Shown here: positions 11,048 through 52,266 of the stretch, one piece after another
Layout: the number at the start of each line of letters is the position of its first letter
Numbering within the stretch: the first letter of the stretch is position 1
Origin: Myxococcota bacterium
Lineage (GTDB): Bacteria; Myxococcota_A; UBA9160; JAFDET01
Assembly: GCA_028278065.1 (NCBI GenBank)
Contig: JANQFA010000251.1
Location: 11,186 to 75,185 of the forward strand
Direction of reading: 5' to 3'
Length of the DNA stretch: 64,000 nt
Translations under genes and position numbers: made by a program
The notes under the pieces: model-generated
Databases searched by the model: none
What the model was told of the DNA's origin: nothing
The model's input: only the letters and a program-made list of their open reading frames with translations

Positions 11048-11932
11048 TCAGAGCGTGCGCTCCAGCACGTCGAAGCTGCGGTGGCGGCGGAAGCCGACCT
11101 TCTCGTAGGCGCGGTAGGCGGTGCGGTTGGCGGGCGAGAGCACCAGCAGGGCCTGGTCGGCCTCGCCCTCCCACAAGCGACGCAGTGCCCAGGCGGTCAG
11201 GGCCGAGCCGAGTCCCTCGCCCCGTCGCCCGGGGTCGACGCCGACGAAGGCCACCCAGACGCGGCGCGGCCAGTGGGTCTCGATCTCGCTGAACGCCACG
11301 ACCTCCCCGTCGTGGCGGGCGGCTGCCACTGCGTGGCCTGCGCCGCTCAGCACGGTGTCCATCGTCTCGGGAGTGCGCGGCGCGAAGCCGCACTCGTCGT
11401 AGAGGGCGAGGATCTCGGCCGAGTCGCTCGGCTGGGCCCAGGCGAACTCGAGCTTCGCGTCGGAGATCTCCGGCTCGCGCGGCGGCTCGTCGGAGCGCAT
11501 CAGGAAGTGCTGGCGGACCGGCCGGAAGCCGTGGGCGGCGAGGAGCGAGTAGCCGGCGCGGTTCCGGGTTCCGATTCCCGCCACCACGAGCTGGAGTCCC
11601 AACCCGGGGCCCATCTCCAGGGTGGCGCGAAGGAGCTCGCCGCCCTGTCCGCGCCGTCGTTCGCGTCCGTCGACCACCGGGCAGAGGAGACCCGCGATGC
11701 TCGAGCCGGGGTAGCGCAGGAAGCCCGACATCCCGACCACGCGCCCGTCTTCGCTCTCGGCCACGAGGATGTTCTCTTCGGGGGAGATCCCGTGGCGGCG
11801 ATACTCCGCCACCAGCTCCGCCTCGGTCTCCCAGAGCGGATTCAGCACGAAGTCCGCCTCGCCGCGCAGGCACTCCGCGGAGAGCGCGGCCAGTGCCGTG
11901 GCGTCTTCAGAGCGATAGGAGCGGACGGACAT
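11048..11932 (-). CDS. tandem-GNAT acetyltransferase (two GNAT domains, MshD-like architecture)
   Basis: Two acetyl-CoA motifs, RRRGQGGELL and RRGEGLGSALT. Start taken at ATG 11932 (MSVRSYRSED); the longer ORF to 12010 would run into the promoter region. Confidence 0.75.
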   Translation of the reverse strand: MSVRSYRSEDATALAALSAECLRGEADFVLNPLWETEAELVAEYRRHGISPEENILVAESEDGRVVGMSGFLRYPGSSIAGLLCPVVDGRERRRGQGGELLRATLEMGPGLGLQLVVAGIGTRNRAGYSLLAAHGFRPVRQHFLMRSDEPPREPEISDAKLEFAWAQPSDSAEILALYDECGFAPRTPETMDTVLSGAGHAVAAARHDGEVVAFSEIETHWPRRVWVAFVGVDPGRRGEGLGSALTAWALRRLWEGEADQALLVLSPANRTAYRAYEKVGFRRHRSFDVLERTL

Positions 11933-23172: not shown

Positions 23173-24669
23173 TCAGGGGAGATCCGGCGGGGCGTGCCCC
23201 CGGGTCTCGGCGTGCCGGACCAGGGGCTTCAGGCCGCCGCGGAAGCTCCAGGCCTCGAGACCGAGCGCGCGCATCTTCTCGGCGAGATGGGTGCTCTTGA
23301 GCCCGAACTCACAGACCAGCACGTAGCGCTTGTCGGCATCGAACTTCTCGTACGCCGCGAGGGCGTGGGCGAAGTCGAGGTGCAGCGACCCCGGCCAGTG
23401 CCAGCCGGCGAACGCGGCCTTCGAGCGCAGGTCGAGGATGACCGCGTCGGCGGGGATCGTGTCCACCTCGAGGCCCGGGACGGCCATCGCCTCCGGGTCC
23501 AGGACACGGAGATCGAACACCGCCCGTTCGGCCACGGCTCGCTCCAGCAGCGCCGGGTCGATGCGCGCCTCCTCGTGCGCGATGGCCTCGTGGGTGGCCG
23601 CGGTGGCGGGCTTGCGCGGCACCAACGCGCAGTACTCGTCCACGGTGGCGGAGATCGCCCCGGTTCCGACGTGATCGGCGAGGGCGATGATCTCGTCCTT
23701 GTTGAAGGCGACCAGGGGCCGCAGGATCGGCATGCGGGTCGCCTCGGAGATCACGGCCAGGTTGGTGAGGGTCTGCGAGCTCACCTGGCCGACGGCCTCT
23801 CCCGTCACGATCGCCTCCGCGCGCACGTCCCGGGCCACCGCCTCGGCCGCGCGCAGCATGAGTCGCTTCAGGAGCACCTGCCAGTAGCGGGGCTCACCGC
23901 CCGCGCGCAGGTCGGCGCTCACCGCCTCGAAGTCGACGGCGTGCAGCTTGGGCCGCGTGCCGTAGGACCAGGAGTCGGCGATCACCTTCATCACCCGCAG
24001 CACGCCGAGCTGGTGGCTGGCGCCGCCGAGGTTGCAGAAGACGTAGTGCTGGGCGACGCCGCGCTTCAGGAGCTGCCAGGCGGCCACGGCCGAATCGAAG
24101 CCGCCGGAGACCAGCGCCACGGCGCGTCCCTCGACGCCGATGGGAAGCCCGCCCGGACCCGGGAGCCGCTCGGCGAAGAACCAGGTGGCGTCGGGCATCA
24201 GCTCGATCCAGGCCGTCGCCTCGGGACGGGCCAGGTCGACCCCGGCGGACTCGGCCAGCAGGGCGGTGCCGAGCTGGACTTGCACGTCCCGGGACGATGC
24301 GGCGATCCTGGAGCGCTCGCCCACGCGCCGGCAGCGCACCGCGAAGCGGCGGCCGCGCGTGTGATCGGCGAAGAGCCGGGCGCCCGCGGCCACGACGTCC
24401 GCGGTGGCGGTCACCGGGCGCACCACGGCGGGTGACACCGTCTGCACTCCGAAGACGCGAGCGACGATCTCGCCCGCAGCCGGGTCCGCGGCCTCCACGA
24501 AGATGCGCTCGTGGGTGGTGCGGACCTTCGCCTCGACGCCCTCCGATTCCAGGGCGTCGCGCAGGTTGTCCGTCAGCCGCCGGGCGAAGCGGCCGCGCGT
24601 GAAGCGCGCCTTGGTGCCGAGCTCACCGGAGAGGCGCACCAGGAAGGCGTGGGCGAGCGGGGTGGCCAC
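23173..24669 (-). CDS. thiI: tRNA 4-thiouridine synthase ThiI with C-terminal rhodanese domain
   Basis: PP-loop SGGFDSAVAAW with a THUMP-like N-terminus. Rhodanese active-site Cys in VLVCEFGLKS. Confidence 0.9.
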   Translation of the reverse strand: MATPLAHAFLVRLSGELGTKARFTRGRFARRLTDNLRDALESEGVEAKVRTTHERIFVEAADPAAGEIVARVFGVQTVSPAVVRPVTATADVVAAGARLFADHTRGRRFAVRCRRVGERSRIAASSRDVQVQLGTALLAESAGVDLARPEATAWIELMPDATWFFAERLPGPGGLPIGVEGRAVALVSGGFDSAVAAWQLLKRGVAQHYVFCNLGGASHQLGVLRVMKVIADSWSYGTRPKLHAVDFEAVSADLRAGGEPRYWQVLLKRLMLRAAEAVARDVRAEAIVTGEAVGQVSSQTLTNLAVISEATRMPILRPLVAFNKDEIIALADHVGTGAISATVDEYCALVPRKPATAATHEAIAHEEARIDPALLERAVAERAVFDLRVLDPEAMAVPGLEVDTIPADAVILDLRSKAAFAGWHWPGSLHLDFAHALAAYEKFDADKRYVLVCEFGLKSTHLAEKMRALGLEAWSFRGGLKPLVRHAETRGHAPPDLP

Positions 24670-25502: not shown

Positions 25503-25547
25503 GCGGAGGCGCTCCTCGCGCTGCTCTCGCCCGCCTGAGCGGAGGCG
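25476..25547. repeat. perfect 36-bp tandem duplication (2 copies) spanning the HAD stop codon
   Basis: CTCCTCGCGCTGCTCTCGCCCGCCTGAGCGGAGGCG occurs at 25476-25511 and again at 25512-25547 with no mismatch. Confidence 0.95.
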
Positions 25548-25564
25548 CTCGCCTGAAGGACGCT

Positions 25565-26842
25565 CTAGGCGGCGCGTCGGAAGGCGCGCAGGGGCACGAT
25601 CGCCACGAGGATCGCGACGGCGCTCGCCACGTAGAGGCCGCGGTAGAGCGGCAGGGCCTCCCAGCCCTGCGCGAGGAGCAGCTCGAGCGCGATGCCGACG
25701 AGGAGCGGCGCCAGACCGCGGACCAGGCTGTCGATCACGCGGGCGACCACCAGGGTCCGGGCCGGGGCGTCACCGGGCGCCAGCTCGAAGAGCACGTGGG
25801 TGTCGGCCACGTCGAAGCCGGCGGAGAGGGCCTGTAGCGCGAAGAAGAGGAGCCCGGCGAGCGCGAGGTTGGAGGGGTCGTCGGCTCGCACGCCCATGAA
25901 CCCCAGGAAGACCAGCGCCAGTCCGATCGCGGTCCAGCGGAAGACCGGCTCGGGGCCGGTCGCGTCGACGACCCGTCCCCACAGCCAGAGCGTGCTCAGG
26001 CCGCCGGCGTAGAAGGCCACGGGTGCGTACAGGGTGCTCGCATCGCTGAAGCCGATCACCTTGCGCATCATCACGAGTGCGAAGGTGGTCACCACGACCC
26101 GGGCCGAGCCTGCGATCGTGATGCCCGCCAGGTACAGGCGGATCCGGGGTCCCGCGAGAACCCGTACGGCTTCGCGCACGTGGATGGTCTGGCCCGTCCG
26201 CTCGCTCCGCTCGGGCAGCCGCGCGATCATCACCACGCGCAGGCAGCCCAACGCGAAGGCCACCGCGAAGAGCGTTCCGAAGGCCCCCGGGCTGGCCGCC
26301 AGCCAGCGTTGAGCGGCGAAGAAGTACACGATGAGGGTGAAGTGCCAGCCGGTGCGCAGGATCGCGAAGAAGCGCCCGATGCGGGCGTCCTCCTGGTAGC
26401 CGTGCAGGAGCGGGAACCAGACGGCCTCGCCGATCGAGAAGCCCGCCGCAGCCACCGCGAACGAGGAGAGCGCGATCCCGACCGCGAGGCTGCCGCCCAG
26501 CTCCTGCAGGCCCGGGAAGAAGACGAGCGGCAGGGTTCCCAGGATGGCGACGATCTGCCCGGCCACCAGGATGCTGCGCTTCCGTGTGCGTCCGACCCGG
26601 CGCAGCGCCGGAAGCTGGAGCAGCACACCCACGTAGGTGAACATCCGCTGCAGCCCGACCACGCCCTCGCTCGCGCCCAGCGCCAGCAACGCCAGCGTGG
26701 GCAGGTGATCCGTGACCACCATGCGGTGGGTCATCCCGGCCGGATGGCTGGCGATGGCCAGGCGGCGGCCGCGCCGGCGTTCGTCGGCCGAGAGCGGAGG
26801 CGCGGTCTGGGGCATCGGATCGGAAGGAGGGCTGGCGCTCAT
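25565..26842 (-). CDS. MFS-type transporter
   Basis: About 12 hydrophobic segments. Start taken at ATG 26842 (MSASPPSDP), which leaves 34 nt to the divergent gene; the longer ORF to 27118 would overlap that gene. Confidence 0.7.
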   Translation of the reverse strand: MSASPPSDPMPQTAPPLSADERRRGRRLAIASHPAGMTHRMVVTDHLPTLALLALGASEGVVGLQRMFTYVGVLLQLPALRRVGRTRKRSILVAGQIVAILGTLPLVFFPGLQELGGSLAVGIALSSFAVAAAGFSIGEAVWFPLLHGYQEDARIGRFFAILRTGWHFTLIVYFFAAQRWLAASPGAFGTLFAVAFALGCLRVVMIARLPERSERTGQTIHVREAVRVLAGPRIRLYLAGITIAGSARVVVTTFALVMMRKVIGFSDASTLYAPVAFYAGGLSTLWLWGRVVDATGPEPVFRWTAIGLALVFLGFMGVRADDPSNLALAGLLFFALQALSAGFDVADTHVLFELAPGDAPARTLVVARVIDSLVRGLAPLLVGIALELLLAQGWEALPLYRGLYVASAVAILVAIVPLRAFRRAA

Positions 26843-26876
26843 GGGGCGGCGCCAGTGTGGTAGAAAGGGCTTCGTC

Positions 26877-27296
26877 ATGCGAGCGCGCGCGTATCGCATC
26901 CTGTGCGGCGGGGTCGGGGGGCTGCTGGTGGTCGCGGGGCTGGCGCTGCTGCAGCTCTTTCTCCGCTTCCACTCGGCCGGGTTCTCGGGCGAGCAGCCGG
27001 AGCTGCCCGTCCCGTTCGACGCCTGGGCCGTGTACATGGCGGCGATGGCGGGCTGCGCGTGCGTCGGCTGGGGAGGGAGCCTGCTGGGCGCCGTGCGAGG
27101 TGGGCCCGCGGCCCGCACCGTCGGGTCCTTCAGCGCCCTGGCGTTCGCCCTGATGGCGATCTACCGCATGATCGGCTGGATCGTCGGCGAGTACGCGGGC
27201 TTCGCGCGCCTCCTCCGCATGGAGGCCGTCCTCTTCCTGCTGATCGCGCTGGCCTTCGTGTGGCTGCGGCCCCCGCGCGCCGGGATGGAGGCCTGA
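26877..27296 (+). CDS. small 4-TM membrane protein with a CxC motif
   Basis: 139 aa with strong GC3 bias. Cys residues at ILCGG and AGCACVGW. The stop overlaps the next start. Confidence 0.65.
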   Translation: MRARAYRILCGGVGGLLVVAGLALLQLFLRFHSAGFSGEQPELPVPFDAWAVYMAAMAGCACVGWGGSLLGAVRGGPAARTVGSFSALAFALMAIYRMIGWIVGEYAGFARLLRMEAVLFLLIALAFVWLRPPRAGMEA

Positions 27297-27907
27297 TGGC
27301 ACGCCTGCTGGGCAGCCTCGTGCTCCTCCTGCTGCTGGCTCTCGCGGTGGGGCTGCCGCGCGTGCCGATGTTCCGGCAAGGGGCGGAGGAGGGCGTCGCC
27401 CGCGCCGATGTCGCGGGCGCGGTCGGCACGGTGGGAGAGCGGCTACCGGACTTCACCCTCCACACGCTGGACGGTGCTCGGCTGCGCCTCGAGGACCTGC
27501 GCGGGCATCGCGTCCTGCTCGCCTTCGAACGCAGCCTCGACTGGTGACCCTTCACCAAGACGCGGCTCGTGGAGCTGCGCGACGTCTTTCGGGAGGGCGG
27601 TGTGCTCGACGACGTGGTGATCGTCTACGTCGTGGCGGGAAACCAGATGACGCCGAAGACCTCCCAGTTCCTGGCGAGCCACGGACTCGAGGACGCGGTG
27701 CGTCTGGCGATCGATCCGGAGAGCGCCGCGATCGACCGGCTGGGCCTGCGGCGCCCGGATCCCGAACCGATCGAGGCCGGCGTCCCGCACCCGGCCACCT
27801 ACGTGCTCGACCGCGAGGGGGTGGTCCGCTTCGTGGACGTGCGGGAGGACTTCCACTTCTGGCTGGATCCCGAGCTGCCCCTGCGCGCCCTCGCCGAGAT
27901 CCCCTGA
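27296..27907 (+). CDS. exported thioredoxin-fold (AhpC/TSA / redoxin-like) protein with in-frame TGA at 27545-27547, candidate selenocysteine
   Basis: ORFs 26903..27547 and 27569..27907 share one frame. Read through, the junction is VLLAFERSLDW-TGA-PFTKTRLVEL, placing the TGA at the catalytic Cys position. LPDFTL, HPATYVLDREGVV and a signal peptide are present. GC3 bias is continuous across the TGA. Confidence 0.6.
27561..27579 (+). promoter_or_regulatory. SECIS-like stem-loop downstream of the in-frame TGA
   Basis: cgcggctc-gtg-gagctgcg forms 8 bp (one G-U) with a G/U apical loop and starts 13 nt after the TGA. An optional lower helix pairs aaga (27557-60) with tctt (27585-88). Confidence 0.4.
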
Positions 27908-27986
27908 CCCGGGCGGCTCGGAGTCCTTCGCCGGAATCTCCATGACTGGGAAGGCTCTCGCCCTGCGCCTTCCCGACCCGGACGGC

Positions 27987-28730
27987 TCAGAGCAGGCCGG
28001 CGCTTCTCTGGGGGTCGAGCTCGTTGAAGTTCTGCAGGGACCAGACGTGGCCGGCCTGGCCGAGGGGCCGGGCCTGGCTGACCGAGTAGGCGCCGAGGGC
28101 GCTCTCGAAGCGCAGCCACTCCCAGGGAACCGGGCGGATGTCCAGCAGGTGCGTGAGCAGCACGGCGTTGGTCCCGCCGTGGGCCACGACGACGACGCTC
28201 GGCGCGGTGCCCTCGGGCACGTGCCACACGGTGAAGTCCTTCTCGCGCGTGGGGGTGATGCCGTGCCGGCCGAGGACTCCCTCGAGCGCACCGACGGCTC
28301 GCTCGTGGAAGCCGGTGAAGTTCTCGCCTCCAGGCCAGCCGTCCCAGTGCTCTTCGAGGGGACGGCGCGAGGCCTCCACGAACATGCGGTCCACCTCGTC
28401 CTGGGTGAGGCCGTCGAAGCGTACGCCGATCTCGCGCAGGTCCTCGACCGTGACCGGATCGAGCCCGGTCAGCTCGGCCAGCGGACGTGCCGTCTCCTGG
28501 GCCCGCGGGTACGGGCTGACGTAGATGGCATCGACCCCGTCGCGGGCGATCGCTTCGGCCGAGGCACGGGCCTGCTTGCGGCCGTAGGGCGTGAGGCCCG
28601 GGTGGCGCACCGTGGGTCCGTCCTCGGGGGCCCAGTCGGGCTCGCCGTGCCGGAGCAGGGTGATGCGCGGCAGGCGCTGGGCGCGGACCTGCACCTCACG
28701 GCGTGCCGAGGGTCCGGGATCGGCGGGCAT
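27987..28730 (-). CDS. histidine phosphatase (phosphoglycerate-mutase-like) family protein
   Basis: RHG motif in TLLRHGEPDW. Second catalytic His in VVVAHGGTN. Confidence 0.85.
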   Translation of the reverse strand: MPADPGPSARREVQVRAQRLPRITLLRHGEPDWAPEDGPTVRHPGLTPYGRKQARASAEAIARDGVDAIYVSPYPRAQETARPLAELTGLDPVTVEDLREIGVRFDGLTQDEVDRMFVEASRRPLEEHWDGWPGGENFTGFHERAVGALEGVLGRHGITPTREKDFTVWHVPEGTAPSVVVVAHGGTNAVLLTHLLDIRPVPWEWLRFESALGAYSVSQARPLGQAGHVWSLQNFNELDPQRSAGLL

Positions 28731-28814
28731 CGTCTTCCTCCGCAGGAGGGCGGGAGACTAACGGACGCCCTTGGGGACGCGAGCGGCGCGCGGGCTCCGC
28801 TACCCTGGCTCGCC

Positions 28815-29600
28815 ATGGCTGGACGGATTCGAATCGAGAAGGAGGACGGGCTCGGGTGGATCGTGTTCGATCACCCGGAGCGACGGAACGCGATCTCCGT
28901 GGAGATGTGGCGGGACATCCCCAAGGCGACCGCAGAGCTCGCCGACGATCCCGACGTGCGCGTCGTGGTGATGCGCGGCGCGGGCGACGTGGCCTTCGTG
29001 TCGGGCGCCGACATCTCGGAGTTCGGACAGACGCGCACCGGAGCCGAGGCCGCCCGCACCTACGACGCGGGCAATGCCGCCGCCTTCGTGGCGCTGGCCA
29101 CCCTGGAGAAGCCGCTGATCGCGATGATCCACGGCTTCTGCGTCGGCGGGGGCTGTGCCATCTCGCTGAACGCGGACCTCCGCTTCGCGGCGGAGGACGC
29201 CATCTTCGCCATCCCCGCCGCGCGGCTGGGCCTGGGCTACGCCATGGGCGGGATCCAGGCGCTGGTCGACCTCGTGGGGCCGAGCCGAGCCAAGGAGATC
29301 TTCTTCACGGCACGCCGCTTCGACGCCGCGGAAGCGGCGGACATGGGTCTGGTGAACGCGGTGCTTCCCAAGGCCGAGCTCGAGGGCCACGTGCGCGCGG
29401 TCGCCGCGCAGATCGCCGGCAACGCACCGCTGACGGTGCGGGCGGTCAAGCGATCCGTGACCGAGCTGGCGAAGGCGCCCGACCAGCGGGACTACGACGC
29501 CGTGAGCGAGATGGTGCGGGCCTGCTTCGAGAGCGACGACTACAAGGAGGGCGTGAAGGCCTTCCTCGAGAAGCGCCCGCCGCGCTTCCGGGGCCGCTAG
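28815..29600 (+). CDS. enoyl-CoA hydratase/isomerase (crotonase) family protein
   Basis: Motifs GAGDVAFVSGADISEF and GFCVGGGCAI. C-terminal EGVKAFLEKRPPRF. Confidence 0.9.
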   Translation: MAGRIRIEKEDGLGWIVFDHPERRNAISVEMWRDIPKATAELADDPDVRVVVMRGAGDVAFVSGADISEFGQTRTGAEAARTYDAGNAAAFVALATLEKPLIAMIHGFCVGGGCAISLNADLRFAAEDAIFAIPAARLGLGYAMGGIQALVDLVGPSRAKEIFFTARRFDAAEAADMGLVNAVLPKAELEGHVRAVAAQIAGNAPLTVRAVKRSVTELAKAPDQRDYDAVSEMVRACFESDDYKEGVKAFLEKRPPRFRGR

Positions 29601-51186: not shown

Positions 51187-51504
51187 ATGGCAGACGCTGC
51201 GGCTTTCGACTGGGTGTGCGCCGAGCTCGAGCAGAGCACGTCACTCGATCGCCTCGAGGCGCGCGGCACGGTCCGGATCGCCCTGAAGGAAGCCGGTCTC
51301 GACTCGCGCACCCTGACCCCGGCGCAGATGAAGGTGGTGCTCGAGAAGGTCCTTCCCAAGGAGCTCGAGTCGCGCGGCGTCCAGGATGCTTCGGACGTGT
51401 GCAGCAGCCTGGCCACGGGCATCGCCTCCCTGGCCGACGGCGGCTCGGGTGTGGAGACGCCCGAGGAGGTGTTCAGGCGTCTCGCCGGCGCGTCCGCGTC
51501 CTGA
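51187..51504 (+). CDS. small soluble hypothetical protein (105 aa)
   Basis: GC3-biased with a GAGGGA upstream. Helical, acidic, with no recognisable motif. Confidence 0.55.
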   Translation: MADAAAFDWVCAELEQSTSLDRLEARGTVRIALKEAGLDSRTLTPAQMKVVLEKVLPKELESRGVQDASDVCSSLATGIASLADGGSGVETPEEVFRRLAGASAS

Positions 51505-51507
51505 CCC

Positions 51508-52266
51508 GTGGCGGAGACCGCGGCTCCCCACCCGCTCGTGTGGGTGGGCTTCCTCGCGTTCTTCTTCGTCGCCCTCGCGGTCGGCGTGCGCCTGCTGCTC
51601 CTCGCGCGACGCACGCGGCAGCTCCCGGAGCTGTGCATGGGGATCGGAGTCCTGGGGATCGGACCCGTTGGCTTCGGGCTCATGGTCCTGGCGCAGGAGC
51701 TGCGGGCGGGCTCGCCCGCCCTGTACGCGCCGATCGTGGCGGCGGGGATGGCGGCGGTCGCGGCCGGTGTCATCGCGAAGCTGATCTTCAACTGGCGTGT
51801 CTACCATCCGACCCGCTCGCGCGTCGCGGCACTCGTCGCCCTGGCCGCCGCCGTCCATGTCGCCGCGTTCGGCTACACGGCCGTCGTGGGATTCGAGACC
51901 TTCAACCGGCTCGATTCCAGCTACCTGCTGCGGACGGCCCTGCAGATCGGGGCACTCCTCTGGGGATCGGTCGAGTCACTGCGCTACGGGCGGCTCATGG
52001 GTCGCCGCGTGCGCCTCGGGCTGGCCGACCCTGCCGTCGCGAACCGCTTCACGCTCTGGGGGATCGGGGCCTTCGCGGCGGGGTTCGGAACGCTGGTCGG
52101 AACCGGGGCGCAGCTCTGGTACGGCCAGCCCGAGGCCCAGGTCCCCTGGGTGCTGGCCAGCTCGTCGGCCCACGGGCTGGTCGCCGCGATCGCGATCGCG
52201 CTGGCGTTCATGCCGCCGCCGGCGTACGTGCGTTTCGTCCAGCGGCGCGCGGCCCGGGCCACCTAG
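51508..52266 (+). CDS. 7-TM hypothetical membrane protein
   Basis: GTG start 3 nt after the upstream TGA. Seven hydrophobic segments. No family motif recognised. Confidence 0.65.
   Translation: MAETAAPHPLVWVGFLAFFFVALAVGVRLLLLARRTRQLPELCMGIGVLGIGPVGFGLMVLAQELRAGSPALYAPIVAAGMAAVAAGVIAKLIFNWRVYHPTRSRVAALVALAAAVHVAAFGYTAVVGFETFNRLDSSYLLRTALQIGALLWGSVESLRYGRLMGRRVRLGLADPAVANRFTLWGIGAFAAGFGTLVGTGAQLWYGQPEAQVPWVLASSSAHGLVAAIAIALAFMPPPAYVRFVQRRAARAT

Follow-up and report, generated by a model that had tools for sequence, protein, structure and literature searches.

The 64,000-nucleotide stretch analysed here (positions 11,186 to 75,185 of the forward strand of contig JANQFA010000251.1, assembly GCA_028278065.1 of a Myxococcota bacterium; hereafter the window) carries at 27296-27907 a gene for a thioredoxin-fold protein of the redoxin type, within which an in-frame TGA is, on comparison with related sequences, very likely to be decoded as selenocysteine (Sec). 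The two open reading frames (ORFs) called in this interval form one gene, the TGA stands in a column that is occupied by either TGA or a Cys codon in nearly all orthologues, and it is followed by a hairpin whose conservation is specific to the TGA-containing forms. The best explanation for the whole set of observations, and one that can be held with high confidence, is a membrane-anchored thioredoxin-fold selenoprotein whose synthesis involves hairpin-directed recoding of UGA and which is coupled to a membrane partner encoded directly upstream. The features of the redoxin gene are as follows.

27296-27907, plus strand: complete redoxin gene of 203 codons, with the predicted UGA-Sec at codon 84 and an AhpC/TSA (thioredoxin-fold) domain
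27296-27361, plus strand: N-terminal hydrophobic helix MARLLGSLVLLLLLALAVGLPR, by reading a signal anchor or signal peptide, also present in the model of orthologue P0003
27545-27547, plus strand: in-frame UGA, residue 84, very probably read as Sec, from the column statistics in orthologues
27545-27556, plus strand: putative active-site motif U-P-F-T (UxxT), in which Thr occupies the position of the second (resolving) Cys of CxxC
27561-27579, plus strand: selenocysteine insertion sequence (SECIS) hairpin within the coding sequence (codons T-R-L-V-E-L-R), from folding, conservation and the constraints on bacterial SECIS elements
27905-27907, plus strand: true stop codon of the redoxin gene, TGA

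Gene structure and annotation

The ORFs at 26903-27547 and 27569-27907 share one frame, and the gap between them consists of the TGA at 27545-27547 and the seven codons PFTKTRL, an arrangement already recorded in the first-pass annotation of the sequence, whose coordinates proved correct on checking. The gene starts at ATG 27296, with a 1-base overlap with the stop codon of the upstream gene (TGA 27294-27296), and the junction in the read-through protein is GHRVLLAFERSLDW-[TGA]-PFTKTRLVELRDVF. When the protein was searched against Pfam with Cys put in place of the TGA, the AhpC-TSA domain was matched at residues 46-179 in a single stretch crossing the TGA (E 5.9e-17, 62.2 bits against a cut-off of 26), and Redoxin (PF08534) was also above threshold (42.2 bits against 26.6). 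The structural model of a Cys-containing orthologue likewise spans the junction, in agreement with the initial proposals that the two flanks belong to one AhpC/TSA-like domain and that neither half would fold alone. Two further initial claims were borne out, namely that the third-position codon bias runs uninterrupted through the TGA (third-position G+C of 0.86 in the 150 nt on the 5' side and 0.92 in the 150 nt on the 3' side) and that the read-through protein of 203 residues contains no Cys at all.

The TGA is also present in a second data set: contig L001 of the Logan collection (run SRR20820740) corresponds to window positions 25521-29021 with 3500 of 3501 positions identical, includes the TGA at 27545-27547, and is an independent assembly reproducing it. 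Window 27296-27907 is a single gene, not two. Public gene calls nevertheless divide the redoxin into products of 83 and 112 aa, as had been anticipated of automated annotation, and in dozens of metagenome-assembled genomes (MAGs), as well as in the window's own record, it is stored as two fragments or as the C-terminal half alone. The GTG at 27569-27571, from which the 112-aa ORF is called, coincides with the apical loop of the SECIS hairpin, and it is because this loop codon is called as a start that the short C-terminal products in the databases (P0001, P0019, P0035, P0040, P0042, P0044 and others) begin at the identical residue.

The TGA column in orthologues

One genome per species was scanned, which yielded 60 loci; all but a few belong to MAGs of Myxococcota or "Deltaproteobacteria", and protein identities to the window redoxin are 45-68%. 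The codon at the position of interest was read within FERS[LVI]DW-x-P[FY]TKxR in the 58 loci that have this column, and was TGA in 43, TGC or TGT (Cys) in 14 and TCC (Ser) in one, so that the alignment to homologues suggested at the outset as a check returned a column of predominantly TGA with Cys as the main substitute. The 43 TGA loci together with the window constitute 44 Sec forms, and motif and hairpin were scored on 42 non-redundant Sec forms and 15 Cys/Ser forms. A protein search recovered two kinds of homologue: full-length proteins of approximately 199-200 aa, which have DW-C-P or, in a few cases, DW-S-P at the TGA column, and many 112-aa pieces that start exactly at the start of the window's second ORF. 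Family members with Ser at the Sec/Cys column, otherwise fully conserved, are the TCC locus (L010:3247) and proteins P0004, P0005, P0006, P0011 and P0037.

Among the 44 Sec forms, pairwise differences at codon positions 1, 2 and 3 were 0.34, 0.29 and 0.51 over 36 codons upstream of the TGA, and 0.23, 0.14 and 0.50 over 30 codons around GVPHP downstream of it. These values match those of the Cys forms, and the Sec forms contain no other stop codons. A coding pattern of substitution on either side of the TGA, as read from these alignments, rules out that the gene is a pseudogene, that the TGA is an assembly error or that two separate small genes are present. The seven codons between the TGA and the GTG (PFTKxRL) are likewise highly conserved in the orthologues at the protein level.

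One MAG, 07C-BC-St03_bin.17.orig (GCA_964194905.1), contains two diverged paralogues, one on CAXMOD010000119.1 (L005) and one on CAXMOD010000237.1 (L027), with 68% and 46% identity to the window protein, respectively, and with the TGA and the same hairpin in both. Some of the taxonomic labels given by submitters look inconsistent: five loci (L041, L042, L047, L054 and L058) are labelled Spirochaetaceae or Spirochaetales and two (L057 and L060) Binatia, the pair formed by the redoxin and its upstream partner is otherwise restricted to Myxococcota, and one of the Spirochaetaceae-labelled MAGs has the isolate name HK-STAS-MYXO-51.

The probable SECIS hairpin

In bacterial recoding, SelB binds the SECIS hairpin and brings Sec-tRNA(Sec) to the UGA. 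The window hairpin is formed by 27561-27568 and 27572-27579 (CGCGGCUC / GAGCUGCG), which pair over 8 bp, including one G-U pair, and enclose the loop GUG at 27569-27571. It begins 13 nt 3' of the UGA, with 21 nt from the UGA to the loop and a folding free energy of -11.8 kcal/mol. The consensus for bacterial SECIS elements comprises a stem of 4-16 bp, a loop of 3-9 nt starting with G and usually continuing with G or U, a distance from UGA to loop of 16-37 nt and a minimum free energy of -7.5 kcal/mol or lower (PMC13188914), and the window hairpin falls within all four of these constraints. Its position, length and spacing are as they were first described; the optional lower helix described along with it is present in the window fold but is not conserved in orthologues.

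The hairpin is proven by comparative data, not by the single sequence. All eight pairs are standard in 38 of the 42 non-redundant Sec forms, compared with one of the 15 Cys/Ser forms, and across the 44-sequence alignment 98.9% of the cells are paired, a share that drops to 32-47% on shifting the 3' partners by 1-3 columns. Each variable pair shows one compensatory double change, from C-G to G-C in L014 and from C-G to U-A in L021. At the third positions of stem codons +5, +6, +7, +9 and +10 (counted from the TGA) the entropy is 0-0.28 bit in Sec forms versus 0.97-1.69 bits in Cys forms, and the Cys forms mostly encode the same amino acids over the hairpin codons (A/T-R-L-V-E-L-R). The third position of loop codon +8 varies in Sec forms, being GUG or GUC (0.98 bit, versus 0.72 bit in Cys forms), with whole-codon entropies of 1.14 bits in Sec forms and 2.53 bits in Cys forms; variability does not differ between the two sets at the ten codons 5' of the TGA, at codons +1 to +3 or at +11 to +15. 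Synonymous freezing of the stem codons in the Sec forms only is therefore indicative of an RNA-level constraint on the predicted helix that applies only where the TGA is present, and on the aligned sequences it is a stronger argument for the hairpin than the covariation. Rfam was searched with the whole window at gathering thresholds and with 27400-27750 at E <= 10, and the only match was a chance one to a small nucleolar RNA (E 0.95), which means only that no Rfam family matched.

Protein family, fold and active site

The putative Sec lies in the context W-U-P-F-T, in full F-E-R-S-L-D-W-U-P-F-T, and U-x-x-T is found in all 44 Sec forms. Position +3 is Thr in every one of the 42 Sec forms scored, and in the Cys/Ser forms it is Thr in 11 and Ser in four. 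When the family profile was compared with solved structures, the best matches were Etrx2/Etrx1 of Streptococcus pneumoniae (2yp6, E 3.7e-11), surface lipoproteins of the thioredoxin family; other members of that family, ResA and TlpA came next. The alignment to Etrx2 sets "FERSLDW-C-PFTK" against "FWAS--W-C-GPCK". By this alignment, Sec is at the place of the first, nucleophilic Cys of the WCxxC motif of the TlpA/ResA/Etrx type and Thr replaces the second Cys. The first-pass annotation had put the TGA at the first Cys of redoxin and peroxiredoxin-like proteins, which holds for the first Cys of WCxxC but does not extend to the peroxidatic Cys of true peroxiredoxins.

The AlphaFold2 (AF2) model of the Cys orthologue P0003 has a predicted local distance difference test score (pLDDT) of 91 and shows, after a helix at residues 2-22, one compact domain of thioredoxin-like fold. 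By the positive-inside rule, this N-terminal helix would put the redox domain outside the cytoplasm. Matches by Foldseek to AhpE, Tpx, Etrx2, ResA, Bcp and TlpA are near-equal (E 1e-10 to 1e-8), and the modelled fold does not separate the peroxiredoxin branch from the TlpA branch. For the window redoxin, no NCBIfam family, the curated selenoprotein families included, reaches its cut-off (best ResA, 28.9 bits against 170; TlpA, 11.3 bits against 230), PF13911 (AhpC-TSA_2) has no match at E <= 1, and for PF00255 (GSHPx) there is no Pfam match and no glutathione peroxidase (GPx) within the top 50 Foldseek matches.

Among the alternative explanations, the one that survives best accepts the selenoprotein and makes it a classical peroxiredoxin (Prx), that is a 1-Sec Prx reducing peroxide at the Prx peroxidatic site, a possibility raised by the facts that AhpC-TSA is the best Pfam family and that the top Foldseek matches are the 1-Cys AhpE and Tpx (E ~2e-10). 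This is nonetheless improbable. The Prx signature PxxxT/SxxC(U) is lacking, with Leu at U-3 and Phe at U-7; Sec falls on the first Cys of CxxC with Thr on the second-Cys position; ResA, TlpA and Etrx2 are nearly as good in Foldseek; and the AhpE profile match is confined to the C-terminal 30 residues.

Decoding of the UGA

Several observations weigh against a Sec-encoding redoxin with a SECIS hairpin and a dedicated partner. The 66-nt window fold is no more stable than shuffled sequences (z = 0.08), a lack of signal in the single sequence that is expected because of its 72% G+C. Six of the eight stem pairs are invariant, and the covariation consists of two single-sequence events and is formally thin. 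The members with Ser at the Sec/Cys column have no redox-active residue at the site, which would argue that some lineages can do without one. The neighbouring genes are of metabolic or housekeeping type (ThiI, HAD hydrolase, MFS transporter, histidine phosphatase, enoyl-CoA hydratase, CoA-transferase and others) and do not point to a substrate or function. Finally, neither the 64-kb window nor ~430 kb of related loci yielded selA, selB, selD or tRNA-Sec, and scans for motifs and tblastn searches using SelD and SelB of E. coli returned nothing there; this null result is a weak test because the genes are expected elsewhere in the genome. ARAGORN detected no tRNA in the window and only tRNA-Pro across the 60 loci.

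The failure to find sel genes in these loci would also fit a UGA read without selenium, whether through a reassigned code (Trp or Gly), near-cognate suppression or insertion of Cys via the Sec machinery, an explanation that is very unlikely. The redoxin and its upstream neighbour both end in TGA, and UGA is therefore not generally reassigned. The 64 kb contain a single further TGA, at 51502, that joins two same-frame stretches with coding signal; this second candidate (51502-51510, ...GASAS-TGA-P-GTG...) was rejected as an ordinary stop, with the GTG start of the next gene (51508-52266) three bases on in the same frame. Further, the column holds Cys rather than Trp or Gly in orthologues, a hairpin of SECIS type lies at the canonical distance and is held fixed in TGA forms alone, and for the Sec pathway to insert an occasional Cys at UGA the same machinery would be needed anyway.

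Termination at the UGA, yielding an 83-residue N-terminal fragment and a separate 112-residue protein from GTG 27569, is what the gene callers predict, and it is less credible still. Neither piece is a complete thioredoxin fold, as the Pfam domain and the AF2 model cross the junction, Cys orthologues are single proteins of 199-200 aa, and PFTKxRL, between the TGA and the GTG, is highly conserved as protein; moreover the supposed GTG start is the hairpin loop, which in 12 of the 42 Sec forms scored is GUC or GGU, neither of them a start codon. A pseudogene or a sequencing or assembly error, in which the TGA would be a recent nonsense mutation or a miscalled TGC/TGT, can draw on the two short genes of the public calls and on a TGA known at assembly level, and can be dismissed with near certainty, given the identical TGA in 43 separately assembled orthologous loci and in a further assembly of the window's lineage, the purifying selection on both halves and the conservation of the hairpin specifically with the TGA.

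Relation to known selenoproteins

Thioredoxin-fold proteins in which Sec replaces the catalytic Cys have long been known, in line with the initial statement that U for the first Cys defines an established class, and no concept is overturned by the window redoxin. Existing catalogues (PMC9312934, 2022; PMC13188914, 2026) list PF00578 (AhpC-TSA) with the Sec motifs TxxU (Prx), UxxC/UxxU and UGC; PF08534 (Redoxin) with UxxC; cd02966 or PF13905 (thiol-disulfide isomerase-like) with UxxC; PF13911 / cd02970 (AhpC/TSA family) with UxxS, first from an Olavius symbiont metagenome; and PF00255 (GPx) with UxxT. The combination of PF00578 with UxxT is absent from both. Under the rule of the 2022 catalogue, the same domain with a different Sec motif is a separate subfamily (PMC9312934), and by that rule the window family is apparently an unlisted subfamily, set apart from the UxxS family by domain and motif only. 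A literature search for Myxococcota selenoproteins returned nothing relevant.

The window family resembles the Prx-like thiol:disulfide oxidoreductases of PF00578 with UxxC/UxxU (for example Geobacter WP_010940744.1) in being bacterial, in its AhpC/TSA domain, in having Sec at the first CxxC-derived position with the SECIS directly downstream in the coding sequence, and in having Cys homologues. It differs from them in its UxxT motif and the lack of a resolving Cys (the window protein having no Cys), in its membrane helix and in its partner with four transmembrane helices (4-TM). With the UxxS family of PF13911 / cd02970 it shares a single Sec and a hydroxyl residue at +3, but its motif is FERSxDW-U-PFTK rather than FYRGxW-C/U-PYC/S and it has no PF13911 match; CxxS is found only in four Cys/Ser-form loci and never in Sec forms. 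The nearest named relatives outside the clade are 'peroxiredoxin-like family proteins' with FYRGxWCPYC, at approximately 30% identity. The TlpA/ResA/Etrx group (2yp6/4hqz Etrx2, 1st9 ResA, 1jfu TlpA) is similar in fold, in anchoring to membrane or lipid and in the alignment of its W-C with W-U, but uses a CxxC dithiol recharged by CcdA/DsbD, whereas the window redoxin has Thr and an unrelated 4-TM partner.

Likenesses to glutathione peroxidase (PF00255) comprise U-x-x-T, Sec as the sole redox residue and, presumptively, regeneration by an external thiol. Q117 and W189 of the window redoxin are invariant and lie 33 and 105 residues from Sec, spacings that we take, from GPx1 numbering, to resemble those of the GPx Gln and Trp, and that serve as a lead only. 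On the other side, there is no GSHPx domain match, and the Asn of the GPx tetrad is without an obvious counterpart in the window redoxin.

Recognition of the gene corrects a systematic annotation error, by which it is stored as two meaningless fragments or as a C-terminal half, and adds a well-supported family to the bacterial selenoproteome. The 44 Sec, 14 Cys and one Ser forms, two of the Cys forms with a relic hairpin, provide material on the exchange of Sec and Cys, and a use of selenium in the cell envelope of uncultured Myxococcota is indicated.

Proposed mechanism and evolution

In the proposed mechanism, SelB-GTP-Sec-tRNA(Sec) on the 8-bp hairpin would direct the recoding of UGA 27545-27547 to Sec, and the AhpC/TSA-superfamily thioredoxin-fold domain, held at the membrane by its N-terminal helix, would be produced together with the 4-TM partner, with which it may form a complex. 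The selenolate would then attack an oxidised substrate (peroxide, sulfenate or disulfide), the product would be a selenenic acid or a selenenylsulfide, and an external thiol or the partner would resolve this intermediate, as happens in glutathione peroxidases of the UxxT type or in monothiol thioredoxin-like proteins. A single-selenol mode with external resolution is suggested because the protein has Thr where a resolving Cys would be and lacks Cys elsewhere. The specific chemistry, that of a single-selenol oxidoreductase (peroxidase or reductase) recycled by an external thiol or by the partner, is accordingly offered as a tentative assignment.

When the read-through proteins are arranged in a neighbour-joining tree, every major branch includes TGA forms, and the Cys forms make up four or five separate groups at the least, with the Ser form inside one of them. 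Two Cys forms retain a relic hairpin, L035:868 (TGC) with 8 of 8 pairs and L048:3154 (TGT) with 7 of 8, and the hairpin has been lost in the other 13 Cys/Ser forms. From their sequences L035 and L048 look like recent Sec-to-Cys replacements, and Sec is therefore probably the ancestral state. The position of the Ser locus inside a Cys clade suggests a route from TGA through TGC to TCC. A possible broader picture is that of an uncatalogued extracytoplasmic selenoenzyme system, consisting of the 4-TM protein and the anchored UxxT redoxin, that would be ancestral in a large uncultured Myxococcota clade, with Sec original, at least four to five independent Sec-to-Cys replacements and one further change to Ser, and in which the partner would supply or accept the redox equivalents that a lone selenol could not resolve on its own.

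The upstream partner and gene neighbourhood

The gene directly upstream of the redoxin encodes the membrane partner.

26841-27296, plus strand: partner gene for a small four-helix membrane protein of 151 aa, from the gene call in L001 and P0084

An alternative start at 26877 (MRARAYR...) would give a protein of 139 aa. A partner homologue of approximately 140-150 aa with four hydrophobic helices lies directly 5' of the redoxin in 55 of the 60 loci, the partner stop and the redoxin start overlap by 1 or 4 nt in most loci, and the two genes are translationally coupled. The partner has no relative in Pfam, NCBIfam or the PDB, and its database homologues are all named 'hypothetical protein'. By the positive-inside rule, its topology would be N-in, C-in. 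A defined thiol relay within the partner was considered and not adopted, since the positions of its Cys residues are not conserved.

A natural in-frame fusion of partner and redoxin, in the Cys form, occurs at L066:3001-4017 (Logan SRR21547727), encoding the 338-aa protein P0009 with no stop between the two parts. Its AF2 model (predicted template modelling score, pTM, 0.72) has five helices followed by the redox domain, the N-terminal helix of the redoxin being the fifth. This may be a genuine gene fusion, which would support physical association of the two proteins, or it may be an indel artefact of a single contig.

Further upstream, the window encodes ThiI (a tRNA 4-thiouridine synthase with a rhodanese domain) at 23173-24669 on the minus strand, and in 26 of the 60 loci this gene is found no more than a few kb from the redoxin and its partner. 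Its proximity probably reflects shared ancestry (conserved synteny), or may instead indicate a link related to sulfur or selenium.

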